Shown piece after piece: positions 1 to 16,354 of a stretch of 34,132 bases of DNA. Each line of letters starts with the position of its first letter. Position 1 is the first letter of the stretch. Source of the stretch: Planctomycetota bacterium (GTDB lineage: Bacteria > Planctomycetota > MHYJ01 > WSZJ01 > JACPWG01); contig JACPWG010000184.1 in assembly GCA_016197205.1 (NCBI GenBank), positions 1 through 34,132 of the forward strand, given 5' to 3'. The position numbers were made by a program, and so were the translations under genes. The notes under the pieces are model-generated. The model was given only the letters and a program-made list of their open reading frames with translations, did not search any database and was not told where the DNA came from.

Positions 1-123
1 ACTGTGTTATTACGGGAAGTAGTAGTGATTTGCGAAAACTGGCCTTTGCAAAATTAGACAAAAATAAACAAAATGCATATCCAAATTTTAGAACCGGCGT
101 AGATCTAAATAGCACAAAATATT
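1..123. other. AT-rich (about 30-35% GC) segment of foreign-looking DNA abutting a truncated sigma-factor copy
   Basis: The composition contrasts sharply with the roughly 70% GC of the rest of the window. The truncated sigma reading frame (88-399, minus) runs into this segment and terminates in it. Confidence 0.5.
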
Positions 124-399
124 CTGCTCCCGCAGCTCGTTCAGGCAGAGGTTCACCACGATCCGGAAGAGCCAGGTCCCGAACTTCGCGGTCGGGGCAT
201 ACCGTTCCCGCGCATTCCAGACGCGCACGAACACGTCCTGCCCGAGGTCCTCGCAGGCGGCCCGGTCGTTCGTGTACCGGTACACGGTGTTGAGCACGCT
301 CTTCTGGTACTTTTCGACGAGCTTCGTGAAAGCCTCCTCGTCGCCGCGCTGGAACCGGAGCATGAGGCCGACGTCGGGGTCCTTCGTGTACTCGGGCAT
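88..399 (-). pseudogene. Truncated ECF (sigma-70 family) sigma factor, region 2 only (copy 1). Homology continues through NLCLNELREQ, then the gene is broken by AT-rich DNA.
   Basis: The translation MPEYTKDPDVGLMLRFQRGDEEAFTKLVEKYQKSVLNTVYRYTNDRAACEDLGQDVFVRVWNARERYAPTAKFGTWLFRIVVNLCLNELREQ is a typical ECF sigma region 2.1-2.4. No region 4 follows. It is about 97% identical at the DNA level to 5134-5390. Confidence 0.6.
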
Positions 400-406
400 C
401 TCGGCC

Positions 407-598
407 TCATCCGCGGTGCTTCGGATGGAGGCCCCTGCGGCTCCCCTCCCGGACGGTGATCCCCTGCTCTTCGAACCAGTCCGAGAGCGGGATGACGTAC
501 TTGCGGCTCGTCGCGAGCGCCGTGCGGAAGTCCCCGGAGATCACCTCCCCCTTCTCCTGGACATCGTCCCACGTCCACCAGGAACTGGAATGTGTCAA
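407..598 (-). pseudogene. 3'-terminal fragment of selB (last roughly 50 codons), duplicated copy
   Basis: The C-terminal [50 protein letters not shown] is near-identical to the C-terminus of the full SelB at 5398-7335. Homology stops near 560, and the N-terminal residues MTHSSSWWTWDDV are non-homologous junction sequence. Confidence 0.6.
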
Positions 599-606
599 CT
601 ATCCCT

Positions 607-3390
607 TCACGAAGCATCCTCTACTCGTCTTTTTTCCTTTCGTAGCTCAACCCGGGCACAACGGCGCTTAAGGCTCACGTCCCACAGGGCACTCAGCGTG
701 GCAGCGCGCCATTTGAAGTACTCCCGCCGCGTCTCCGGCTTCCATGAGAACGTACCACCAAACGGATCAGCCAAGAAGTCCGCGAAACTACTCCCAGGCG
801 TCGGACGACGCCGGTTCCCGTCAGATTCCCGCACCAGCCAAATTTTCTTACGACGCCCTCCGGGGTCTGGCAGTGGGAGGAGAAGGGTCAAGTAGGCGCG
901 ACAGAGCGTGCTGACAAAAGTCAACTGGCTTTCGTCATTAGGATTGAATAGCGGCACTTCGCCCCTCTGGATCAGGGCACGCTTCACCTCAACCCTCATG
1001 CTCAACCTTGCTGTAGTCGCATTCACGTCTTGGGTCTCATAGGCAGCTTCGAAAGCCGAATTGGCCATGTTCGCATACGAGGACACGAGGTAGTTTAGAT
1101 AAGGGTTCGACATGGGCCTTTGGAACGACGCCGCAACCTCGGCGCTCAAGAAAGGAAGGTGATGGACAGACTCCAGCCAGTCACCCCAGATCGCTACACC
1201 CGTCGCAGGTCGAGAGAGGCACACAGCAAGACACAGACGGAGCAGAACAGTCATGGACTCGACGGGTCTTACATGTTCCGGCCCGTCATTTGGCAACAAC
1301 TCGCTCCCGCTCGCTAGCGCGGACCGACTCTGAAGAAAGTTGAACCAGTAAGCGTCAAGGAAGAGCCGAGCGTCAAACCCAAACATGACTGCCAGGTTGA
1401 AGACATCCGCAGCGACTTCCCTCAGGAGCCGCTTTGTCAAATTTACTCTCACCCTCCGGTCACGCCCGATCTCCATGCTTAGTTCTCTTAACGGAGGAGG
1501 AACGTCTTCAAAGGACAGCGGACTCTCGGGAAGACAATACTCAATCCAGGTCTCCATCCTATAGAAATTCTCATAATATACATGGCCAACTTCGTGCCCC
1601 ACCACGGTCGCAAAAGACTCTGGATGAAAGGCATCCCTCGGGCTCAGCTCGAGAGCAAACCGGTCCGACATTACGTCCGCAGTTCCGGAGATTGTCGCCA
1701 ACATCGGCGGAATGCCGAGCTGCTCCTCCCAAGGGGCAGGCCTATGGAATGGAGCTTGGCAAAGGATGTCATAGGCACCGGTCAGAGCCGTGGCGACTTG
1801 CTGAACGGCCCCGCGGAAGAGGGGATTAACGTCACGCTCCTGTGAGAATCGGGGGCTCGTATGAATCCTGTTCGCGTAGGCGTGGCCCCACCTTCGCAAT
1901 GCTTCGTCCAATTGCTCGACAAACGCGTCGCGCTTCGAGCAATCCCGCAGGCGGATATCCTCGGCCAGACGGTCGACAAATCCGGCCAAATCCACGAAAT
2001 CCGCATAGAGCAATCGGTCGTCAATCCCATCGTTGTAATTGGAGATCACACCGAGGAGCCGAGTTGTTACCGTGTCCGGAAGCGCGAGTTTTCTACAACT
2101 GTTCCGTATGGACTCTCGATCCTTGCTTGAAATGCGGAACAGCGGTAGGATCATTTCACGGTGGTAATAGTAATGGTCCCCAGCAACAGGAGGCAGCGGG
2201 CGCCCATATGGAAGAAACTGCCCGAGCAACGAATAGGTCTTGAGGGCATGATCTCGAATTGTCGCACCACAAGCCTTTGCAACAAATTCTGCAATGACTT
2301 CCCTCGACGACATTTCGCGCATGGCGAATTCTGGATGAATGAAATCAAACTTTCCGAGGGTTAATCTAACCTCTGGCTGCCCCCTCGGGTCCAGCAAGGA
2401 GCCGAGATGTCCCGGCCGGCTCGTCCACAGAGATGTGAAGTGGCATCTGTCTTTCTCGTCTGGCGGAGCTATCGGCTTGCCGATTGCACTGAGTTTGACA
2501 ACTCGGTCCTTGTGCGAAATATTCAGCCCCACAGCACCCGCCTCTACGGCTATGCGCTCTCGCTCGTTCTCCTGGATCCACCTCTCGAAAAGCTCAAACC
2601 GGAAACCTGCCGTTGTCCAGGCTGCGTCGAAAAGGTGACAATTACGGGTGCTGTGATCAAAAACGCTGTCCACCCAGTGGAGCGCGGCTGCCGCTTGTGC
2701 ATGCGAGGGCCACCCAGCAAACAGAGAATTCACGGATTCCTCGCGGAACTGATCAAGGACGCTCATGGACTCGGCGAACGACTTGCTCGCGATCAGCAGG
2801 GTGATTTCGTTCCATCCCATGCTCTGCAATTGGAGGAAAGAGCAAGGAACGGCGCCAGCAGTGGCCACCTTGTAGTTCAGCCACAACTGCACCCATCGAA
2901 GGAAATCGAATCCACCGCGCATCATCAGAACGGGGTTCAGCTTGAGCTGCGTCATGGTTAGGATTGGTAGCTGCTCCGCAGTTGCCAGGAAAGTCTTCAC
3001 TGCCGTGAGCGCGTCCGGTGGTGGAGCTCCTGGACATTCTCTATTCGAGGGCAGGAGTGGGACGAATCCGAAAAGTGACTGGTGCTGAAATCCATGGTCT
3101 TTTTCGGGGTCCGAGACGAATCCATTGAACGCATTGAAGTCCCTGAGGGCGAACGTTGCTCCATCCAAGGCCGCAACAACAAGCAGATCCCAGTCAGAGA
3201 AAATCGAGTAGATGTGCGGTACGTACAAACCGTCATCCAACGGGGCGCTGATGGAGGCCTCTAGGTTCGTTCGTCGGCGATCGAATAGCGGACGCACAGC
3301 TTCCTGGACCAGGGTCACCCGGTCCCGCCCTACTGGCGCCGTTACAAGTCCCACAAATACGCCCACGTCGCCCAGCCCAATCACAGGCAT
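607..3390 (-). CDS. Large hypothetical protein (927 aa) with an HExxH zinc-metallopeptidase-like motif (VVGHEVGHVYYENFY), in a lower-GC island
   Basis: This is a long ORF with coherent codon usage in DNA of about 50-58% GC. An HEVGH motif is followed by acidic residues (ENFYRMETWIEY). No family was confidently recognised. Confidence 0.6.
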   Translation of the reverse strand: MPVIGLGDVGVFVGLVTAPVGRDRVTLVQEAVRPLFDRRRTNLEASISAPLDDGLYVPHIYSIFSDWDLLVVAALDGATFALRDFNAFNGFVSDPEKDHGFQHQSLFGFVPLLPSNRECPGAPPPDALTAVKTFLATAEQLPILTMTQLKLNPVLMMRGGFDFLRWVQLWLNYKVATAGAVPCSFLQLQSMGWNEITLLIASKSFAESMSVLDQFREESVNSLFAGWPSHAQAAAALHWVDSVFDHSTRNCHLFDAAWTTAGFRFELFERWIQENERERIAVEAGAVGLNISHKDRVVKLSAIGKPIAPPDEKDRCHFTSLWTSRPGHLGSLLDPRGQPEVRLTLGKFDFIHPEFAMREMSSREVIAEFVAKACGATIRDHALKTYSLLGQFLPYGRPLPPVAGDHYYYHREMILPLFRISSKDRESIRNSCRKLALPDTVTTRLLGVISNYNDGIDDRLLYADFVDLAGFVDRLAEDIRLRDCSKRDAFVEQLDEALRRWGHAYANRIHTSPRFSQERDVNPLFRGAVQQVATALTGAYDILCQAPFHRPAPWEEQLGIPPMLATISGTADVMSDRFALELSPRDAFHPESFATVVGHEVGHVYYENFYRMETWIEYCLPESPLSFEDVPPPLRELSMEIGRDRRVRVNLTKRLLREVAADVFNLAVMFGFDARLFLDAYWFNFLQSRSALASGSELLPNDGPEHVRPVESMTVLLRLCLAVCLSRPATGVAIWGDWLESVHHLPFLSAEVAASFQRPMSNPYLNYLVSSYANMANSAFEAAYETQDVNATTARLSMRVEVKRALIQRGEVPLFNPNDESQLTFVSTLCRAYLTLLLPLPDPGGRRKKIWLVRESDGNRRRPTPGSSFADFLADPFGGTFSWKPETRREYFKWRAATLSALWDVSLKRRCARVELRKEKRRVEDAS

Positions 3391-3531
3391 GTCCGAGTCT
3401 CCACTTCAAGGAGGCCCCCGCCGCGTGCTGGAACTCCAGCGCCATCGTCAAGGTGGCGTCGTTCCAACGCGAATGGAGTGTGGCTTCAAATGTCGAGGGG
3501 CACCTTGCCCCCCCGGGCTTGACACCCATGT

Positions 3532-4011
3532 TCATCCGGACGAGGTGGGTGGGTTCGAGGTGTTCGCAGGCAGACCACCCAACGGTCTCTTCATGAACAG
3601 TCCCGCGTTGCCATACGCCCCTTCCCCGAGAGCCTGGAGGGTGTCGTGGATGATGTCCTCGTAGCGCCCCATCTTGCTCGTCCACCTCCCATCCGCTAGC
3701 TGTCGGGCTACATGGACGGGTCTGAGGAGATTAACGAAGACCGCGATCTTCTCGAATCCCGGCTCAAGCCCCCCATCAGGACACCTAGAATAACCCAGAG
3801 TGGCGAAACAGCATTCGAAGGTATCCAGACTCTCTTTGCACGGGCAACTTTGCGGCCAGTAGTAATTGCCGCTCGGGTGGGGCCACCATCTCCGCGTCGT
3901 GTCACACGCGGCCCATGCGACGCAGTTGTACCGGTCATCCGGCGGGCTCGTCACCGAGTAGCTCGCTGGAACCAGCAAGGGGAAGCTCGCAATGAACCGC
4001 GCTAAGCACAC
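3532..4011 (-). CDS. Hypothetical 159-aa protein. It has a hydrophobic N-terminus, possibly a signal peptide, a conserved-looking YNCVAWAA Cys motif and downstream His residues, so a papain-like or NlpC/P60-type hydrolase is a speculative call.
   Basis: The ORF directly abuts the stop of the upstream gene at 4012. The motif order is Cys then His, and the product is Cys-rich. Confidence 0.45.
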   Translation of the reverse strand: MCLARFIASFPLLVPASYSVTSPPDDRYNCVAWAACDTTRRWWPHPSGNYYWPQSCPCKESLDTFECCFATLGYSRCPDGGLEPGFEKIAVFVNLLRPVHVARQLADGRWTSKMGRYEDIIHDTLQALGEGAYGNAGLFMKRPLGGLPANTSNPPTSSG

Positions 4012-4602
4012 TTAAAGGAACCCAGCCTGTTTGCCCCAACTGACCCAGCACTTTCGCATTTCCTCAACCTGCCCCGCCTGTTCGGGCGGAACCGGATTCT
4101 TCTGCGTAATCTCTACGAGGGCGTCGAACCACAGTCCGCCGAACGACTCCAGGTCCCGGAGCAAAAGTGGTACGATTGCCCAGCCCATGTCGACGATGCG
4201 CTTGTATGCCGGATGACAGGCTAGGCGTGCAGGTGATGACTCAATCCCAGTCTCGTCCTTCCAAGTTTTCGCAAGCGAAGCGAACTTCTCTGCAACTCCA
4301 GGTTGGCTGAACTTAGCCGGCGCAAGGCTAGGAAGCGAGGGGTCCGTTGGGACGGGACAAAAGATGGGCGCTGGTGGAAAGTTCGGGCGCTCTGCGAGCC
4401 GCTTCAAGATCTGCCCTCGCGTCTCGGAGTCCCTGTCGTCCCAACCTAGCCGAATTCCTCCGGCGGCGGTCTCCTCAGTGGGATTCTCTTTCTCCTTGGG
4501 CATCTCGGTCTCCCACATGGCACATGCTGGGGTACGATCCCTCCTTCTTGGGTAGGAGGGCATGACCGGCCGGATTATACTGATCGCGGCCGAGGATGTC
4601 AA
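4012..4602 (-). CDS. Hypothetical protein (196 aa as tracked). The true start may be an internal Met near 4518 (MWETEMPKEKEN).
   Basis: The ORF lies in the low-GC island, on the same strand as and abutting the next gene, consistent with a three-gene operon. No recognisable family was found. Confidence 0.45.
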   Translation of the reverse strand: MTSSAAISIIRPVMPSYPRRRDRTPACAMWETEMPKEKENPTEETAAGGIRLGWDDRDSETRGQILKRLAERPNFPPAPIFCPVPTDPSLPSLAPAKFSQPGVAEKFASLAKTWKDETGIESSPARLACHPAYKRIVDMGWAIVPLLLRDLESFGGLWFDALVEITQKNPVPPEQAGQVEEMRKCWVSWGKQAGFL

Positions 4603-4971
4603 CCCTCGCTACAGCGCATCCGCAAGTAAGACATTTCGGTCGAGGACAGACGAATAGCGCCGACACCCAAGGGGCGTTCGGGCAGCGGGTCGTTGTACGG
4701 TCACTTCAAGCGTTGGACAACTTGCCGGTCGCCTGGCTCCAGCAGCCCGCCGCGCCTTCTTGGTCACGGCGAAGTGAAGCATGGGCACGGTCGGCGCGCC
4801 CCGCAGGGCGCTGCCCGGGTCCGGGGCAGGACAGGGGGCGCTGTCAGCGGGACGATCCATCGTGGGCGGCTCCTGGACTAGAAGAGCAGCCGCCGATTGT
4901 ATCCCGGACGCGAGACCGGGGGCAACGAAAAGTGCTGCCGGCGCCGAGCCGGAATCAACCCTGCGGTCGCC

Positions 4972-5390
4972 CTACGGGGCCTCGTCCAGCTCCAGGTACC
5001 GCGCCAGCAGCCGCTTCAGGCCCTCCCGCCCCCGAAAGAGGAGCGACTTCACCGCCGGCGTGGAAAGCTCCATCCGCGCGGCGATCTCCTCGTACGACAG
5101 CTCTTCGTATTTGTCCAGGATCAGCGCGAGCTCAGGCAGAGGTTCACCACGATCCGGAAGAGCCAGGTCCCGAACTTCGCGGTCGGGGCATACCGTTCCC
5201 GCGCATTCCAGACGCGCACGAACACGTCCTGCGCGAGGTCCTCGCAGGCGGCCCGGTCGTTCGTGTACCGGTACACGGTGTTGAGCACGCTCTTCTGGTA
5301 CTTCTCGACGAGCTTCGTGAAAGCGTCCTCGTCGCCGCGCTGGAACCGGAGCATGAGGCCGACGTCGGGGTCCTTCGTGTACTCGGGCAT
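4972..5390 (-). pseudogene. ECF sigma factor (copy 2) with a frame disruption. Region 2 (5134-5390) is in one frame, and region 4 (4975-5133, LPELALILDKYEELSYEEIAARMELSTPAVKSLLFRGREGLKRLLARY) is in the -1 frame with almost no linker.
   Basis: The region-2 ORF ends at ...RIVVNLCLSSR*. The region-4 helix-turn-helix is only readable by shifting frame at exactly the point where the direct repeat with copy 1 begins. The usual linker of about 30-50 aa between regions 2.4 and 4 is missing. Confidence 0.6.
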
Positions 5391-5397
5391 CTCGGCC

Positions 5398-7335
5398 TCA
5401 TCCGCGGTGCTTCGGATGGAGGACCCTGCGGCTCCCCTCCCGGACGGTGATCCCCTGCTCGTCGAACCAGTCCAGGAGCGGGATGACGTACTTGCGGCTC
5501 GTCGCGAGGGCCGTGCGGAAATCCCCGGAGATCACCTCCCCCTTCTCCTGGATCTGCTTCACGAGGAGCTCGCGCGCCTTCTCGATCGCCTTCTGGTGCA
5601 GGAGGATGTCGTCCTTCAGCCGGATGATCGTCCCCGACTCCACGAGGATCCGCAGCACCTGCGCCGCTTTCTCCGCCGTCGCCTTGAGCAGCCCGGGCAG
5701 CTCGTCCGGACGCGGCGTGTTGAACTCCGTCTCCAACAGGAGCTGCTCGAGCTGCCCCGACAGCCGCCGGAACTCGTCGTTCATGCGGACCTGGAAGTTC
5801 GCGGCCCGCAGGAAGGCGTTCTCCTCGACCACCGCCGCCGTCCGCAACAATTCGCCGAGGACGAGGTCGTACGCTTCGTTCTCCAGCTCGAGCCGGTTAC
5901 GGAAGGCGATCCGCTCGATCCCCGCGCGGAGCGGGTTCTCGGCGTGAAAGGCCGCGAGCGAGGCCAGCGCCTTTTCGCGGGTCTTCGCGAGCGCGTCGAC
6001 GTGGAGGAAGCGGTTCCCCTGGTGAATCGGGATGAGCCGGCCCTTGGCCACGAGCGCGGCCAGGAGCTCCGCCGTCCGCTCGACGGTGAGCCCGGTCTCG
6101 TGCGCCACCGGGTCGCGCGCGAGCGCACGCGCGCCGGAGGCCTTCACCGCATACTCGACGGAGGGCTCCGCGTCCGTCATCACGCGCTCTCGCTCGGAGA
6201 GGTCCTCGAGGACCTCCGCGCGGTTGCGGCGGAGCTTGCGCCCAAGCGAAGCGATGATCTTGCCGCCGCCGATCGTCACCGTCGGCGACTGGTGGCGCAC
6301 GACGAAGTAGTCGCCGGGGGCGGCGACCACCGGGTCTTCCAGGAGGAACTGCACGAGGACCTCTTCGCCCGGGGACGCCTCTTTTCGATCGAGCAGGATC
6401 ATCTTCCCCATGACCTCGGCCGTGCCCGTGTGGAACCGGATCGGCAGGTGGGTCTTCAGCGGAACGGTGAAATCGCTCAGGTAGCTGAGGCGCGCCTCGA
6501 CCGTCGTGCGCGCCTGGAAGTAGCCGGGCGTGGCGACGACGAAGCCGCGGACGACGAGGTTGTGGTCGACGTCGCTCACGTTGAGCGCGGAGGAGTGGCC
6601 GGCACGGACCTCGTTCACGTCGCTCTTGTACGCCTGCAGGCCGCGGATGCGACCCGTCTTGCCGAGCGGGAGGAACTCGACGGTGTCTCCGAGCGAGGCC
6701 CGGCCCGAGAGCGGGATGCCGGTGACGACCGTGCCGAAGCCTTTCGCCGAGAAGACGCGCTGGACCGGCATGCGGAAGGCGCCGTCCGTGCTCTTCGGCG
6801 GCGTGGCGGCCACCATCGCGTTCAGCGTGTCCCAGAAGTGCGGGAAGCCTTCGTCGGTCACGACGGAGATCGGGCAGAGGGGCGCGGTCTCGAGGAAGCT
6901 CCCCTTCACGAGGTCGCGGACCTCTTCGATGACGACCTCGGTCAGCTCGCGATCGACCATGTCGATCTTGGTGACGACGACGATGCCGCGCTTGACCCCG
7001 AGAAGGGACATGATGTGGAGGTGTTCGCGCGTCTGGGGCATGACGCCGTCGTTGGCGGCGACGAGGAGCAGGACGAGGTCGATCCCGGTCGCGCCGGCGA
7101 CCATGTTCTTGACGAACTTCTCGTGCCCGGGCACGTCGACGATGCCGATGCGGCGGCCGTCTTTGAGCAGGCAGGGCGCGAAGCCGAGGTCGATGGTGAG
7201 CCCGCGCTCCTTTTCCTCGGGCAGCCGATCGGGATCGATCCCCGTGAGCCGGCGGACGAGGGAGGACTTGCCGTGGTCGATGTGGCCGGCGGTGCCGATC
7301 ACCACGTTCACGATGGGGGGGGCGACGCGGGGCAT
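5398..7335 (-). CDS. selB: Selenocysteine-specific translation elongation factor SelB
   Basis: The G1 motif [13 protein letters not shown], the motifs DVPGHEKF and [12 protein letters not shown], and the EF-Tu-like domains II/III plus C-terminal winged-helix repeats all align with E. coli SelB along the whole length. The tracked ORF (to 8274) carries an Arg/Pro-rich artefactual N-terminal extension; the real start is [18 protein letters not shown]. Confidence 0.85.
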
Positions 7336-7574
7336 GGCACGGCTTTCCAGGAGGGGCCGGAGATGCGGGGAACGGGGGCCTTCGACCGAGTGCTTGCGGC
7401 TCGTTCGCTGCGTGCGGCGCCGGAAACCGAACCGCGACGGTCTGGGAGCGGTCTCGGCCCGTCCTCTCACGGCCCCGGGTTCAAGCCCACCGACAGCCGG
7501 AGGACGGTCCCGGGCGTCGATGCGCAAGAGTGGAGATTCTAGAGCGGCGGCTTCGAAGATGCAAGCGACGGACG

Positions 7575-8495
7575 CTACCGGTAGAGGCGCAGCACCGCGG
7601 CCACGCGATTCCGTTCCTCCGGCGACGTCGCGAGGATGAGGCTGTCGGCGCGGCGGGTGAGGTCGGCGGGGAAGAAGTCGCGCCCGCGCCGGTCGCTCAC
7701 GACCAGGCCGGCCGCGGCCGCGATCTCGGAGGCGAGCTGACCGTCGAAGGCATTGGCGAGGCCCGCGTAGGCGGTTGTATCCCCTTCGAAGAGGCGCCAG
7801 AGCGTGGACGGGTGGGAGGCAGCGACGCGGTACGGCAGGCGCGCCGCGTCGAAGTGGGAGGCGCGGTTGCCGTCGAGGTCGAGGAGGCGCGGGGCGAGCA
7901 CGACGCGGGACGGGCGGTCGCCGCCGGCGACGCGCAGCGGGCGGCCGTTCCTGAACGCGCGACCGCCCACGGAGTGGTAGACGATCCCGAGCGCGGGCAG
8001 CGCGCAGACGGAGACGAGGCCGGCGCCGGGGAGTTTGACGCCAGGGACCTGGGCGCCGAGCACCACGCCATAAAGTTTGGGGTCGATCCGCGATTTGATC
8101 CTGGCGACGGCGTCGGCGGCGAAGCCGACTCCGATCGCGGTGTCCTCCCACGCCATGGTGCCGACCGCGTAGCTGAGCGTGCCGTCGATGGGGTCGACGA
8201 AGAGGACGGGCGCGCCGTTTCGGGGGCGGAACTCGGCGAGGGAAGGCGACTCCTCCTCGGCGTGGACCTTGCATTCGCGGAGACCGGCGGCGAGGAAGCG
8301 GGCGAGGACGGCCTCCTGGGCCGCGAAGTCGCCGGAGGTGAGGATGCGGCGCGACATGAGCGCATGCGGGTTGGCGCCGGTGGCGGCGGGCTTGAACGAG
8401 ACGGTGGCGAACGTGCGCTCGTCGGCCGCGGCCTCGCCGGCCGCGCGCGCGGCCTCGAGGAGGACCTGGACGAGCTTTTGGACGTCGATCGGCAT
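7575..8495 (-). CDS. Inositol monophosphatase / 3'(2'),5'-bisphosphate nucleotidase family (FIG superfamily) protein
   Basis: The VDPIDGT motif and overall layout are typical of the IMPase/SuhB/CysQ family. Confidence 0.75.
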
Positions 8496-8613
8496 GGGTC
8501 GGCGCGCCTCCCGGAGGTGAGTGACGCGGGGAGTGTACCGGAGCGCCGCGGGGAAGTCAACCGTGTGGGGGGAGTGGCCAGCTCAGGGCTCCCCGTGCCG
8601 GCTAAACGCGGTC

Positions 8614-8656
8614 GAAATTTGAAATTTGAAATTTGACTTTTTGCAATTTGAAATTC
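8614..8656. promoter_or_regulatory. AT-rich tandem heptamer array (GAAATTT)x3 plus a spaced fourth copy (CAATTTGAAATTC), in a divergent intergenic region
   Basis: The sequence gaaatttgaaatttgaaatttgactttttgcaatttgaaattc sits between the IMPase gene (minus) and the HEPN module (plus). It is unusually AT-rich for this genome. Confidence 0.3.
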
Positions 8657-11677: not shown

Positions 11678-14600
11678 TCAGGGCCTCGGCCCCTGCGGAT
11701 CGCCGGTCTGCGTCGGCGCCTGCCGGATGCGGCGTTCCAGGTCGTGGCCGCCTTCGAGGGCGAGGATGACGAGCTCGGACCCGGCGGCGCCAGCCCAGCG
11801 GCGGACGGAGAGGGAAGGGCGGAAGGCGAGGGGCCACAGAAACTGTGGAAACCACGCGACCGCCTCGCGGGTGTCCGCGCGTGCGAGTGCGAAGCCGACA
11901 AGTGCGCCCGCCGACCGCCATGGGACCTGCCTGTGGCCGTAGGCGACGGAAAGGGCATCCGACGATCCGTCGATGACCTGGAGGCACTCGCCAGTCCCCG
12001 TGTCCCAGACGACGACGGTGTCCCCGGACAGGCCCGCGATGCGGCCACCATCGGGCGAATAGGCGAGGCTCGTGACAGACCGCCCATGCCCGCGGAGGCA
12101 CGCGATCTCCCGGCCCGTCGTCGCTTCCCAGACGCGGACGGTCTTGTCCCAGGACCCGCTCGCGATCCGGACGCCGTCGGGTGAAAACGCGACGCTCCAG
12201 ACAACCTGCTCATGCCCGGGGAGGCACGCGATCTCCCGGCCCGTATCCGCTTCCCAGACGCGTACTGTCCCGTCGTTCGCTCCGCTCGCGATCCGGCCGC
12301 CGTTGGGCGAGAAGGCAATGCTGTTGACTTGGTCGCCATGCCCACGAAGGCAGGCGACCTCCCGGCCCGTCTCCAATTCCCAGACCCGTACCGTGTTGTC
12401 GCACGACCCGCTCGCGATCCGGCCGCCATCGGGTGAGAAGGCGACGCTTTCGACACTGCCCTCATGCCCGCGGAGGCAGGCGATTTCCCGGCCCGTCGCA
12501 GCGTCCCAGATGCGCACGGTCTTCTCTAGCGACCCGCTCGCGATTCGGCCGCTGTCAAGCGAGAATGCGACGCTCGTGACTTCTTTCTCATGTCCGCGGA
12601 GGCAGGCGATCTCCTGGCCCGTCGAAACGTCCCAGATGCGCACCGTCTTCTCCCGCGACCCGCTAGCGACTCGGCCGCCGTCGGGCGAGAAGGTGACGCC
12701 GCAGACCCAATCATTAAAAGTGCGGACGCAGGCTAGCTCCCGGCCCGTCGTCGCGTCCCAGACGCGGACGGTCTTGTCCCAGGACCCGCTCGCGATCCGG
12801 CCGCCGTCGGGTGAGTAGGCTACACTCTCTACACTGCTTTCGTGCCCCCGGAGGCAGGCAACCTCCTCGCCCGTCTCCGCTTCCCAGACACGCACAGTGT
12901 GGTCGTACGACGCGCTCGCGATCCGGCCGCCGTCGGGCGAATAGGCCACACTCGTGAACATGCTCGTATGCCTGTGGAAGGGGATCTCCCTGCCCGTCCT
13001 GACTTCCCTCTCGCGCATGTCCTGGTCGTACGCCCCGCTCCACTTCCAGCCACCGTCGGGCGAGTAGGCGTCGCCTTCCACGAAGTCCTGATGGGGGCGA
13101 ATGCAGGCGACCTGCCGGCCCGTCTCCGCTTCCCAGACGCGTACTGTCCGGTCGCACGACCCGCTCGCGAGCCGGCCGCCGTCGGGTGAGAAGGCAACGC
13201 TTTCGACACTGCTCGCATGACCGCGGAGGCAGGCGATCTCCCTGCCCGTCGCCGCGTCCCAAACGCGTACGGTCTTGTCGCGTGAGGCGCTCGCGATCCG
13301 GCGGCCGTCGGGCGAGAAGGCAACGCTCTTGACGGAGAGTTGATGCCCGCGAAGACATGTGACCTGCCGGCCCGTCTCCGCTTCCCAGACGCGTACTGTC
13401 CGGTCGCACGACCCGCTCGCGAGCCGGCCGCCGTCGGGTGAGAAGGCAACGCTTTCGACACTGCTCTCATGACCGCGGAGGCAGGCGATTTCCCTGCCCG
13501 TCGCCGCGTCCCAGACGCGCAGAGTCTCGTCGTTCGAGCCGCTCGCGATCCGGCCGCCGTCGGGCGAGAAGGCGACACTCGTGACCGAGTACTCGTGCCC
13601 GCTGAGGATCAACTCCAGCGGGGAGTCCACGGCCGTCGCGGGGGGCCGGATCGATCGCAGCCATGGGAAGTCCGGCGTCCGGCGCTCCTTCGCCGCCCGC
13701 CACGCCTCCAGGAGCGCGCTTAATTTCGGGCCCTCCCGCTCCCAGGGCGCACCCCCCGGCCCCCATCCGCCTTCCGGCGGGTCATAGTGCTCGGCGGCCT
13801 CCGCGCAGTCGTGCCACCAGCACGAGTTCCACAGGCACTGGAAGAGCGCTGTCGGATGGAGAGCGACGAACGCCGCGTCCCGCGAGATCGCCTTCCCCAG
13901 GAGCCGCACCCGCTCGCGCCCCGGCCGGTCCGCCTCAAGCACCCGCTTCGCCTCGGTGAAATCCCCTACCAGCTCTAGCGCCCGCCCGGCCGCCGCCTTC
14001 ACCTCCAGGTACACGAGGTCCGTCAGCACCGCCTCCAGATCGTCCTCACGCCCCGCCCGCGCGAGATGCGCGGGCAGATGCGCGATCATGTACGCCGACA
14101 TCCGCTCCGCACCCCGCCCGTGCTCCCTCATTCCCTCCTCGGCCAGCCGCCGCTCTCCATCCGCCGCGTCGACGGCGTACGGGCCCGCTAGGTGCAGACC
14201 CGTACGCCGGTCCTTCGTCGTCAGCCAGTCGCTGACAGACTGGTGGAAGGGCGCGACGGTCTCTGCCTCCTCCTTTGCGGTCGTCCCGGTCGCGGCCCGT
14301 CGGATCGGGAAGAGCGACCCCAACTCGCCGAGCTGTTCCCGCAGCTCGAAATCCGAGAGCCCCGCCGCCGCCGCCGCGATGCCCAGCGGAAGCGGCCCAC
14401 GCTGCGCGCAGATGGCACCCACCAGCGACCGGGTCCCGCGGCCGTACTCCTGCACCTCCGGGAACTGGCGCTGGAAGAACTTCTGGTAGTACCCCGCCAG
14501 CCCGACGGGGAACTCCTCCGGGCGGTCCAGCGAGAGCCGCCCCACGACCAGCTCCTCAAGCACGACCTTGGCGTAGAGGAACACACCCTCGCTTCGTCTC

Positions 14601-16354
14601 ACGACCTCGTCCACGGCCACCCCGCGCGGAGCGAACCCACGCGCGGTCAGCTCGCTCCACAGGTAGTCCCGTATGTCCTGCAGGTTCTCTGCCCGCTCCG
14701 CCTCGAACACGTAGGGCGCCAGCCCGGCCAGCGTCGACATTACCCCCGATTCGGGTCGGCTCGTCACGAGGAGGCGAAGCCAGAGTGGCGTCCTGGGCCA
14801 GCAGTCGCGCACCACCTCCGCCAGCTCGTTCCGACCGTTGCGCGTGCTCTCGTCGAGCCCGTCCAGGATCACCAGCCGTGGCGTATCCGGCGCCGGGAAA
14901 TCCTTCCCCAACGGCTGGACCCACAGGGTGTCGAAGACCGTGTACGCGTTCGCCGCGGCCTGCGCCTCCACGTCCAGGGCCTGCAACCGCCGATCGTACT
15001 CCGGCAGGTGCTGCGCCATCTGGTACGCTAGCGAAAGTAGCGCCTTGCGCGGGTCGGCCTTTTCATCGTGGCCGTGCACGCAGAGGTGATGGGCGGCGAC
15101 CCGGCCGTGGTAGTGCGCCAAGTGGGCGGCGAAGGCGGACTTGCCCACGCCCGGCCCGCCGACGAGCCAGAAGATCCGGCTCGCATCCGTCGGGCCCGCC
15201 ACGGGCGGAGCGCCCGGAGCCGCCTGAGCCACGGGAGCGGCAGCCGCGCTGGTCGCCCCGACCTCGCCGGCCAGCCAGCGATCCACCTCCGCGCGGAGCC
15301 AGTGCCGCCCGGTGAAGGCCGCCACGTGCCGGGCGATGTCCGCGTCGAAATCGAGCGGCCGGAGCGCTCGTTTGAGCCGCGCCTGCCCTCCCTCGAAGTC
15401 CAATTTGTCGCACTCCAGGGCGTCCAGCAGGCGCTTGAAGCGGCTCGCGTACTTCTCTGCCTTCTCCTCCGGAGGCAGGCAATCCCGCAGGTCCAGGTAT
15501 TGGATTCGGCAGATCGATATCGGCGGTCCGTTCGCGAGCCCGGCCACGAGCACGGGGATGATCAGCATGTTGCGCTCCAGGGCCTTCGCGATCTCGTTGA
15601 GGCAGAACCCGTCCGTCGAGGACGGATCACGCGGGTCGCGCCGGCGCACGGAGTGCGGCGTCATCAGAAGGAGCATTTTGTCGCAGCTCCTGAGTCCCTC
15701 CTCGATGTAGGCCGGGAAGTCCTGCCCGAGGCGGAGCCGTTCCACGTCGAACCAGACTTTGTGCCCGCGCCGTTCCAGGTCCCGCTTGATCCGCGACGCG
15801 ACGGGCTCGTGCTCGTCGTGCCCGTAGCTGAGGAAGACGCGGATCGGCCGGTCGGCGGCCGACGGTGAGGCAGCGCCAGACTCGGGTCCAACGGCCGGAC
15901 TCGATGTGCCCATCGCCGCGGTCGCCGGCGTGCCCGCGGTCAGGCTGACGGTCGTAGCCACGGTCGCCCGCGTCGAAGACGCCGCGCCGGGTCCGAGCGC
16001 GTCCTTCGCGCGCAGGATCGTCATCCGGTGGCCCACGGACGCGACGCCGATTTCCTTTAGCAAGTCGTGCGTCAGGTCGCGAAACGGCGCGTCCGCCGTG
16101 TCGCTCAGATGATTTGCTGCGAAGGCCTCGGCGTATTGCGGCAGCCCGAGCTCGGCCAGCCATTCGCGAATGTCCACCCCGGTCTCTCCGATCACACAGT
16201 TCGGGACCGTGTCAGAAGTCCGAGCTCTGCGATACCCCAGAGCAGCCGATGGCCGCAACCAAAGGGACGAGCCACCGAAGACGCCGAAAACACCGAAAGA
16301 CGAACCGCGAATTGCGCCGACTGCGCGAATTTTCTCCTGGGAATTCGTTGCCAA
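11678..16354 (-). CDS. STAND NTPase with SAM, TIR, NACHT and about 14 WD40 repeats (1558 aa as tracked; start uncertain, possibly GTG near 16195)
   Basis: A SAM-like segment (IREWLAELGLPQYAEAFAANHLS...LLKEIGVASVGHRMTILRAKDAL) is followed by a TIR domain (IRVFLSYGHDE...GFCLNEIAKAL, carrying the conserved catalytic-Glu motif). Next comes a NACHT domain with Walker A GGPGVGKS, Walker B LVILDGLDE and sensor LLVTSRP. It ends with many GHxxSVxSVAFSPDGxRIASGSxDxTVRVWDAxTGRE WD40 repeats. Confidence 0.85.
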   Translation of the reverse strand: MATNSQEKIRAVGAIRGSSFGVFGVFGGSSLWLRPSAALGYRRARTSDTVPNCVIGETGVDIREWLAELGLPQYAEAFAANHLSDTADAPFRDLTHDLLKEIGVASVGHRMTILRAKDALGPGAASSTRATVATTVSLTAGTPATAAMGTSSPAVGPESGAASPSAADRPIRVFLSYGHDEHEPVASRIKRDLERRGHKVWFDVERLRLGQDFPAYIEEGLRSCDKMLLLMTPHSVRRRDPRDPSSTDGFCLNEIAKALERNMLIIPVLVAGLANGPPISICRIQYLDLRDCLPPEEKAEKYASRFKRLLDALECDKLDFEGGQARLKRALRPLDFDADIARHVAAFTGRHWLRAEVDRWLAGEVGATSAAAAPVAQAAPGAPPVAGPTDASRIFWLVGGPGVGKSAFAAHLAHYHGRVAAHHLCVHGHDEKADPRKALLSLAYQMAQHLPEYDRRLQALDVEAQAAANAYTVFDTLWVQPLGKDFPAPDTPRLVILDGLDESTRNGRNELAEVVRDCWPRTPLWLRLLVTSRPESGVMSTLAGLAPYVFEAERAENLQDIRDYLWSELTARGFAPRGVAVDEVVRRSEGVFLYAKVVLEELVVGRLSLDRPEEFPVGLAGYYQKFFQRQFPEVQEYGRGTRSLVGAICAQRGPLPLGIAAAAAGLSDFELREQLGELGSLFPIRRAATGTTAKEEAETVAPFHQSVSDWLTTKDRRTGLHLAGPYAVDAADGERRLAEEGMREHGRGAERMSAYMIAHLPAHLARAGREDDLEAVLTDLVYLEVKAAAGRALELVGDFTEAKRVLEADRPGRERVRLLGKAISRDAAFVALHPTALFQCLWNSCWWHDCAEAAEHYDPPEGGWGPGGAPWEREGPKLSALLEAWRAAKERRTPDFPWLRSIRPPATAVDSPLELILSGHEYSVTSVAFSPDGGRIASGSNDETLRVWDAATGREIACLRGHESSVESVAFSPDGGRLASGSCDRTVRVWEAETGRQVTCLRGHQLSVKSVAFSPDGRRIASASRDKTVRVWDAATGREIACLRGHASSVESVAFSPDGGRLASGSCDRTVRVWEAETGRQVACIRPHQDFVEGDAYSPDGGWKWSGAYDQDMREREVRTGREIPFHRHTSMFTSVAYSPDGGRIASASYDHTVRVWEAETGEEVACLRGHESSVESVAYSPDGGRIASGSWDKTVRVWDATTGRELACVRTFNDWVCGVTFSPDGGRVASGSREKTVRIWDVSTGQEIACLRGHEKEVTSVAFSLDSGRIASGSLEKTVRIWDAATGREIACLRGHEGSVESVAFSPDGGRIASGSCDNTVRVWELETGREVACLRGHGDQVNSIAFSPNGGRIASGANDGTVRVWEADTGREIACLPGHEQVVWSVAFSPDGVRIASGSWDKTVRVWEATTGREIACLRGHGRSVTSLAYSPDGGRIAGLSGDTVVVWDTGTGECLQVIDGSSDALSVAYGHRQVPWRSAGALVGFALARADTREAVAWFPQFLWPLAFRPSLSVRRWAGAAGSELVILALEGGHDLERRIRQAPTQTGDPQGPRP

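Follow-up and report, generated by a model that had tools for sequence, protein, structure and literature searches.

Breaks in a duplicated ECF sigma gene beside selB in a planctomycete contig are probably products of assembly around a compositionally foreign cassette

The window analysed here is an entire contig (34,132 bp) of a metagenome-assembled genome (MAG) from an uncultured planctomycete, in which the end of selB and the start of an adjoining ECF sigma factor gene are present twice, on either side of a cassette of lower GC content. Both sigma copies are interrupted at what looks like the same nucleotide. This raises the question of whether the breaks are a recombination scar that has left the ECF sigma as a pseudogene, as was proposed in a sequence-only reading of this DNA, or whether they were introduced when the contig was assembled.

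Comparison of the window with itself identified a direct repeat of 421 bp (141-561 and 5132-5552), gapless and with nine mismatches (97.9 % identity), which was the sole long dispersed repeat within the 34 kb and was far above chance expectation. The repeat is present in the sequence as assembled, and the earlier estimate (152-560 and 5133-5553, about 410 bp, approximately 97 % identity) was essentially right. Both copies hold 155 nt from the 3' end of selB, TGA stop codon included, a 7-nt spacer (GGCCGAG in each copy) and region 2 of the sigma gene. Pfam domains were consistent with this content, as it had been described before, with SelB-wing_3 in the selB end and Sigma70_r2 extending from the ATG to the residues NLCL. 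The segments 141-241 and 5132-5232 were 100 % identical. Non-synonymous changes had accrued in both copies (five of eight changed codons). Copy 1 carried derived changes at conserved SelB positions (L to S in IPLL and V to G in RVL) and an A to G change in the sigma motif DLAQ, while copy 2 kept the conserved states. The changes at conserved SelB residues are non-conservative, as expected of a decaying duplicate. Coordinates of all features are listed in Table 1.

Table 1. Features of the selB-sigma locus and the adjoining cassette, by position in the window
Feature	Position	Strand	Description
AT-rich terminal tail	1..123	.	directly after NELREQ; 32.5 % GC
Sigma codons NELREQ	124..141	-	extension of region 2.4, absent from copy 2; relatives NLCLNEIRNR; 67 % GC
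Repeat copy 1 (R1)	141..561	.	selB 3' fragment 561->407, stop 409-407; sigma region 2 399->142
Lower-GC cassette	562..4602	-	approximately 56-60 % GC; promoter and three genes
927-aa cassette gene	3390->607	-	with HEVGH
DUF7689 cassette gene	4011->3532	-	
163-aa cassette gene	4503->4012	-	
Consensus sigma-70 promoter of cassette	4602->4574	-	perfect TTGACA-17-TATAAT
Host-like spacer	4603..4971	.	sigma stop to cassette promoter; 369 nt, 67.8 % GC
Sigma region 4	4972..5131	-	LALILDKY...ELDEAP, stop 4974-4972; out-of-frame fusion to region 2 of copy 2
Putative collapsed k=141 node	4991..5131	.	predicted nucleotide identity to the terminal 141 nt of contig V
Repeat copy 2 (R2)	5132..5552	.	true selB 3' end, 7-nt spacer, sigma region 2 5390->5133
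selB, full length	5398..7335	-	selenocysteine-specific elongation factor; GTP_EFTU, Beta-barrel_SelB, SelB-wing_2, SelB-wing_3 (Pfam)

Relatives of the locus were used to reconstruct its ancestral arrangement. The SelB protein (start MPRVAPP) was approximately 50 % identical to SelB of L003, L004 and L046, the best SelB relatives found; for sigma, the highest identity among JGI metagenomes was 54 %. Exact look-ups of the two sigma ORFs gave no match. All three of the closest relatives have a single selB-sigma unit, in which selB is followed by an intact ECF sigma gene, and none contains the cassette genes. Judged from these sequences, the native arrangement in the lineage appears to be selB, 7 nt and one intact ECF sigma gene of approximately 190 aa. 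No same-species 'empty site' was found. The relatives read NEIRNR at the place where copy 1 reads NELREQ, so these codons, previously noted as sigma-like, belong to the native sigma gene; the frame of copy 1 stops 11 codons further on. At copy 2, region 4 of sigma (LALILDKYEELSYEEIA..., 5130->4975) directly follows region 2 in another frame, as had been described. Its identity to the corresponding region of the relatives' intact sigma genes was 49-53 %, and comparison with the three relatives showed approximately 53 codons to be absent between the two regions.

The stretch enclosed by the repeats has a foreign composition. The GC content of the cassette was 0.56-0.60 compared with 0.66-0.69 in the flanks, and its genes were absent from all relatives fetched. 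The foreign cassette beside the selB-sigma pair measures 4.4 kb. In the spacer, the single gene call in the Logan annotation was an 83-aa ORF without domains. Logan provides a k=31 assembly of the same sequencing run (SRR12113391) by an independent assembler, in which contig L001 corresponds to 532-5020 with 0 mismatches and contig L002 to 5523-8642. Each of these stops k-1 nt into a 31-mer that is shared. The cassette forms a single variant-free unitig of 4.5 kb at k=31, and L001 crosses the junction between the cassette and the selB fragment (561/562), which is therefore present in an independent assembly. The earlier reading of this DNA is supported as to its composition, its absence from relatives and the junction at its edge.

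The breaks in sigma are a different matter. Sigma region 4 occurs a second time, as protein P0003 (HYZ53_23585, annotated as partial, 52 aa, LALILDKY...ELDEAG), which has the same locus-tag prefix and lies on the edge of contig V (68,514 nt) of the same MAG. It starts at the very residue of the region 2/region 4 junction in our contig (LALILDKY) and differs in its last codon (ELDEAG, compared with ELDEAP here). With the end of the Logan k=31 contig at 5020, the shared region 4 sequence would start at 4991 (5020-30+1), next to position 4990, a synonymous third codon position. From 4991 to the junction at 5131/5132 is 141 nt, equal to the final k of MEGAHIT; the probable source study of the MAG used MEGAHIT v1.2.9 with default settings (final k of 141) and IDBA-UD scaffolding on 150-nt reads. 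The unique tail of the contig measures 140 nt. Several k conventions were compared post hoc in making these matches to 141 and 140. At a divergence of 2.1 %, the probability of observing no difference in the 242 nt around the junction is 0.005. The breakpoints fall at unitig ends determined by k-mers, and the sequence recurs where a second contig has its edge. Local scaffolding errors are acknowledged for pipelines of the MEGAHIT and IDBA-UD type. Because the breaks coincide with the ends of 141-base words, they are probably assembly products and not biology, and an assembly artefact now appears to be the likelier explanation. The true sigma gene beside selB may be intact, or may be interrupted by the AT-rich DNA. 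Collapse of k-mers at low k was rejected as a cause of the junction, since no repeat of at least 15 nt in the contig touches 4900-5131 or 1-140. Partial ORF products predicted for the alternative continuations at the region 2/region 4 junction were not on record in the Logan assembly, where the unitigs are probably too short.

The window is the entire contig and position 1 is its end, so that copy 1 and the AT-rich stretch of 123 nt are terminal. Searches with this tail against plasmids, phages, viral contigs and JGI metagenomes gave nothing significant; the tail contained no Rfam family, tRNA or terminal inverted repeat and was not repeated within the contig. These results lend no support to contamination by PhiX or vector, nor to the tail being the end of a recognisable IS, intron or MITE.

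The explanation that we favour, with somewhat better than even confidence, is a genuine duplication of the selB 3' end and sigma gene flanking the cassette, of the Campbell type, the central part of the repeat having been collapsed and mis-threaded by the assembly. Circularised DNA carrying the cassette and a homologous selB'-sigma fragment would have entered by a single crossover, giving two direct copies, approximately 2 % diverged, around the cassette; copy 2 would keep selB intact and copy 1 would be a decaying remnant. The duplicated segment would be longer than the visible 421 bp and reach across sigma as far as roughly the stop codon, with the second region 4 of the duplication being the one on contig V. 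Between the last distinguishing variants (242/5233 and 4990) the copies would be identical and would have collapsed in the k=141 graph, making 1-241 and 4991-5131 of this contig single shared unitigs. The scaffold would then have used the 1-241 unitig twice and abutted it to 4991-5131 with a trim of k-1. Such mis-threading would produce the apparent deletion between region 2 and region 4 at 5131/5132, the breaking of both copies at the same base and a contig end 140 nt past the break base. Several points count against this collapse model. The scaffold path requires a trim of k-1 (140 nt) at the false adjacency and correct 141-nt trims at the true ones, a part of the model that leans on the behaviour of the IDBA scaffolder. 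The differences between contig V and this contig cluster near the sigma stop codon, so that for a real junction the last one would lie at exactly this 141-nt distance with a chance of perhaps 1/30, not 1/141. Finally, collapse alone gives no account of the AT-rich tail, which the assembly joins internally to NELREQ.

The main competitor, which we regard as unlikely although still credible, is that the assembled sequence is literally correct. A Campbell-type insertion or a duplication would have been followed by real lesions, with copy 2 losing approximately 157 nt (from late in region 2.4, across the linker, into early region 4.1) and being frameshifted, an AT-rich insertion disrupting copy 1 at a point 18 nt beyond, and the ECF sigma being a pseudogene in both copies. 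The contig reads this way without any Ns, passage through a junction in a k=141 graph normally requires real 142-mers, and an inserted AT-rich element that was lost imprecisely could give breakpoints only 18 nt apart; the non-synonymous changes accrued in both copies also fit. However, real lesions would have had to put exactly 141 nt between the junction and the variant site at which region 4 of contig V becomes identical, leave a tail of exactly 140 nt and spare the sequence around the junction the 2 % divergence of the remaining repeat. In addition, contig V has another region 4 at its edge, which shows that the assembly did not resolve the locus, and the conserved residues are kept in copy 2 as if it were still functional. 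The pseudogene call is therefore not supported as it was stated, as each of the two lesions falls on a probable assembly join, and the breaking of both sigma copies at one nucleotide is likewise not supported as a scar, given the second region 4 on contig V, a junction one 141-mer from a variant site and the length of the tail. Neither the same-nucleotide breaks nor the pseudogene call is trustworthy. Campbell-type integration or duplicative insertion, which the sequence-only reading had also put forward, appears to explain the repeat itself best in biological terms.

Decidedly less probable is that the repeat copies do not lie in one chromosome and were threaded into one linear contig by the scaffolder. 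Copy 1 and the cassette would then belong to a circle of approximately 5 kb or to a co-binned strain, and the chromosome would run from selB through sigma into contig V; or else the AT-rich tail would come from chimeric reads of another organism. With the repeat middle collapsed, neither the graph nor SNP phasing alone can tell an integrated form from a chromosome plus a circle; an identity of 97.9 % is also typical of strain divergence, the contig ends right after copy 1 with contig V left unjoined, and the tail is shorter (123 nt) than one 150-nt read and unlike the rest of the contig. Against separate molecules are the variant-free cassette unitig, the lack of replication or mobilisation genes in the cassette and the selB fragment of copy 1, which starts mid-gene and carries damaging substitutions, as expected of a dead remnant and not of a strain allele. 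A tandem duplication in situ of a unit of selB 3' end, sigma, spacer and cassette, in which the cassette would be an older resident and divergence would have followed, would also make the junction at 561/562 and agrees with the host-like GC of the spacer. This is very improbable. Region 4 on contig V differs from its last codon on (ELDEAG and not ELDEAP), so no second copy of spacer and cassette follows it, and the k=31 unitig is undisturbed by any second, diverged cassette copy.

The favoured duplication resembles Campbell-type integration, as known from suicide-plasmid integrants and homology-driven island capture, in that direct repeats of a homologous segment bound the insert, one restoring the interrupted gene (selB) and the other being a truncated remnant, and in that no recombinase is needed. 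In the relatives this segment is single-copy; in the present contig it stands on both sides of the cassette, and contig V has another region 4. It differs in the absence of replicon or vector functions and in the 2 % divergence of the repeats, which points to a donor fragment from a related strain or to an old event, and its one-molecule state is read from an assembled contig whose repeat middle appears to be collapsed. Integrase-mediated islands at gene 3' ends share the foreign composition, the absence from relatives and a repeat that includes a gene 3' end, with selB intact and a displaced copy at the far end. However, this cassette encodes no integrase, excisionase or transposase, and its repeat is at least 421 bp with nine mismatches, compared with the short identical att core of such islands; no tRNA or tmRNA was found within the window. 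Collapsed two-copy repeats with mis-joins, as arise with MEGAHIT at k=141 and paired-end scaffolding, have in common with this locus a junction and a contig end that lie k or k-1 nt from variant sites, identical sequence at the edge of another contig and variant-free stretches exactly around the junctions. The AT-rich tail, for which collapse alone does not account, is a difference.

The locus is ordinary biology with an assembly caveat. A diverged two-copy repeat that is partly collapsed can, together with scaffolding, mimic a precise recombination scar, and pseudogene calls at collapsed-repeat loci in MAGs are not trustworthy without reads. If the duplication is real, it is a further example of a small foreign cassette captured by homology-driven insertion, here beside a conserved selB-ECF sigma pair and in a poorly sampled planctomycete lineage, and alters no open question. 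A more speculative idea, which we consider improbable, is that the cassette is a mobile unit of approximately 5 kb that lacks an integrase and moves into and out of the chromosome purely by homologous recombination in a captured selB'-sigma segment, the AT-rich DNA being a genuine intervening or mobile element in both sigma copies; the inserted DNA would then silence or rewire the ECF sigma that the clade otherwise conserves beside selB. The three cassette proteins gave no match to an integrase or transposase in Pfam, NCBIfam, PHROGs or PADLOC, and no PDB, PHROG, PADLOC or NCBIfam match of any kind. The family of the 927-aa HExxH protein includes TIR-fused members.

On rechecking the repeat, gene order and frames, the sequence-only reading's account of the sequence around both repeat copies was accurate. 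Positions 141–561 (copy 1, R1) and 5132–5552 (copy 2, R2) form a gapless 421-bp direct repeat with nine mismatches (97.9 % identity), the sole long dispersed repeat within the 34-kb window. Every gene of the selB/sigma/cassette region lies on the minus strand, and sigma region 4 directly abuts copy 2 region 2 in a different frame. Elsewhere, a 1558-aa ORF (11678–16354, minus strand) encodes a repeat-domain protein; a 126-bp (42-codon) unit occurs within it ~13 times in tandem (11971–13653; 68–78 % identity).

Features of the selB/sigma/cassette region, in gene direction
Feature	Position	Strand	Remarks
selB	7335->5398	-	Pfam GTP_EFTU, SelB beta-barrel, wing_2, wing_3
7-nt spacer	between selB and copy 2 sigma region 2		same spacer recurs in copy 1
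ECF sigma region 2, copy 2	5390->5133	-	ends ...FRIVVNLCL
Sigma region 4	5130->4975, stop 4974-4972	-	LALILDKYEELSYEEIA...ELDEAP
Spacer, 369 nt	between region 4 and sigma-70 promoter		host-like GC
Sigma-70 consensus promoter	4602->4574	-	TTGACA-17-TATAAT, perfect 12/12
Cassette genes		-	163-aa gene, DUF7689 gene (middle), 927-aa gene, in that order
927-aa protein	607-3390	-	HEVGH motif at residue 599
selB last 155 nt, second copy	561->407	-	45 nt past 927-aa gene
ECF sigma region 2, copy 1	399->142	-	after selB fragment and 7-nt spacer
NELREQ, six further sigma codons	141->124	-	copy 1
Terminal tail, 123 nt	after NELREQ, at contig end		32.5 % GC

The cassette between the repeat copies (562–4602) has 56–60 % GC; its flanks and the remaining contig sequence have 66–69 %. 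No integrase, transposase, phage or plasmid function is encoded in the cassette, and PADLOC gave no match. Searches of Pfam, PDB and PADLOC returned no match for the 927-aa protein, nor did a word-indexed search return a homologue, but the protein falls within an undescribed family whose 321 cluster representatives each share no more than ~36 % identity with it; members are ~900–950 aa long. A C-terminal TIR/ThsB-like domain in at least one member (P0053, 1180 aa) hints at a conflict or defence role. The promoter precedes the 163-aa gene by 70 nt and is unusual for a planctomycete contig of 68 % GC.

The comparison with relatives proposed in the sequence-only reading yielded an intact selB–sigma arrangement in the three nearest, and no cassette genes in any fetched relative. 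In all three nearest SelB relatives (L003, L004 and L046), only ~50 % identical, selB is directly followed by one intact ECF sigma (...FRIVTNLCLNEIRNRKHRP...LPENQR-LAVVLNKWEDQSYEQI...), whose regions 2 and 4 share a single frame. NELREQ of copy 1 is therefore native sigma sequence, and copy 2 as assembled is frameshifted and lacks ~53 codons, from late 2.4 across the linker into early 4.1. These three loci showed no other synteny beyond selB–sigma. JGI metagenome contigs gave no closer relative (best, 54 %). The selB/sigma adjacency was kept only in these three closest Planctomycetia relatives and was absent from the more distant SelB loci (L005–L082) and a 54 %-identical sigma locus (L083).

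Both the repeat and the foreign cassette are genuine. In an independent Logan k=31 assembly of run SRR12113391, one contig is identical to 532–5020, spanning the cassette|selB fragment junction at 561|562, and a second corresponds to 5523–8642. Both end exactly k−1=30 nt into the sole 31-mer common to the two copies (531–561=5522–5552), as expected where the reads truly branch two ways. The nine copy differences, polarised with the relatives, are asymmetric: the conserved states (L of IPLL and V of RVL in SelB, A of DLAQ in sigma) are kept in copy 2 and replaced by S, G and G, respectively, in copy 1. Copy 1 thus behaves like a decaying remnant rather than another strain's allele of a functional selB. 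Differences number six in the 155 nt of the selB fragment and three in the 258 nt of sigma region 2 (Fisher P=0.086); if this contrast is real, copy 1 region 2 may be, or until recently have been, constrained.

Several observations change the reading of the breaks in the sigma copies. The window spans the whole of a 34,132-bp contig from an NCBI MAG ('Planctomycetes bacterium', locus tags HYZ53_), with copy 1 and the AT-rich DNA at its very end. A region-4 search detected HYZ53_23585 ('partial', 52 aa, LALILDKY...ELDEAG) on another contig of this MAG (contig V, 68,514 nt), and thus the bin holds two region 4 copies. HYZ53_23585 starts at its contig's edge at the same residue as region 4 after the window's region 2|region 4 junction (5131|5132); its last codon differs (ELDEAG versus ELDEAP). 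A Logan contig ends at 5020, which by the k−1 rule, confirmed at two other ends, implies a second sequence in the sample identical from 4991 rightwards; 4990 falls at the third, synonymous position of a codon. The stretch 4991–5131 is exactly 141 nt. The MAG probably comes from a study using MEGAHIT v1.2.9 defaults (final k=141), IDBA-UD scaffolding and 150-nt reads, and local scaffolding errors are acknowledged for this type of pipeline. In a k=141 graph, any unitig running into the shared region-4 sequence, whether out of contig V or from the spacer, has to stop at 5131, which accounts for the edge of contig V and makes the apparent deletion junction exactly a unitig end. The contig's unique sequence ahead of the repeat measures 140 nt (k−1), 141–241 and 5132–5232 are 100 % identical, and the 242 nt that these positions form with 4991–5131 around the junction are free of the 2.1 % divergence found elsewhere (P=0.005 under uniform divergence).

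Under a proposed model that accounts for the second region 4, the Logan end at 5020, the 141- and 140-nt lengths and the divergence-free 242 nt, W[1–241] and W[4991–5131] (window coordinates) would each be one collapsed unitig common to both copies, the true repeat reaching from mid-selB across sigma to roughly the sigma stop codon. The scaffold path in gene direction would be selB...R2 -> W[241->1] -> [region 4...spacer...cassette...R1] -> W[241->1], with the first collapsed unitig and the region-4 unitig merged as if overlapping by k−1. Such merging is the scaffolder's behaviour as the model assumes it; it would remove exactly 140 nt and leave base 141 (=5132) abutting 5131. The same-nucleotide breaks would then be one unitig used twice, and the missing linker and anything between NELREQ and region 4 would be unassembled. 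We therefore somewhat favour assembly or scaffolding of a partly collapsed repeat as the origin of the same-nucleotide breaks, the frameshifted fusion and the pseudogene call. The literal alternative, with real breaks, a real fusion and a sigma pseudogene, appears less likely. The collapse model has its weak points: the 140-nt trim at the false join is in off-by-one tension with the 141-nt trims, a look-elsewhere effect applies, and the 141-nt coincidence is perhaps ~1/30, not 1/141, given that V/window differences cluster near the stop codon.

The best biological reading of the repeat remains the Campbell-type one offered from sequence, a homology-driven insertion duplicating the selB-3′/sigma segment. 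The precise same-nucleotide scar is doubtful, as the breaks coincide with probable k-determined unitig ends (141/140 nt) and the contig V edge, and so is the pseudogene call, made on breaks more likely produced by assembly. The cassette may be integrated, or else partly episomal or strain-specific.

The terminal tail is shorter than one read and resembles nothing else in the contig. No match turned up among plasmids, phages, viral contigs and JGI metagenomes, and scans for Rfam families, tRNAs and inverted repeats were likewise negative. A real insertion in sigma may begin here, just past NELREQ, in one or both copies; alternatively, the tail may be chimeric.

The closest region-4 relative (P0004, 61 % identical), from another organism, is a stand-alone 69-aa region-4-only ORF (L163:1-414; also L164 and L165). 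Its upstream frame is full of stops with no region 2, and it lies ~200 nt from the contig edge in these three independent assemblies, upstream of a gene for a 953-aa Ser/Thr kinase-TPR protein.
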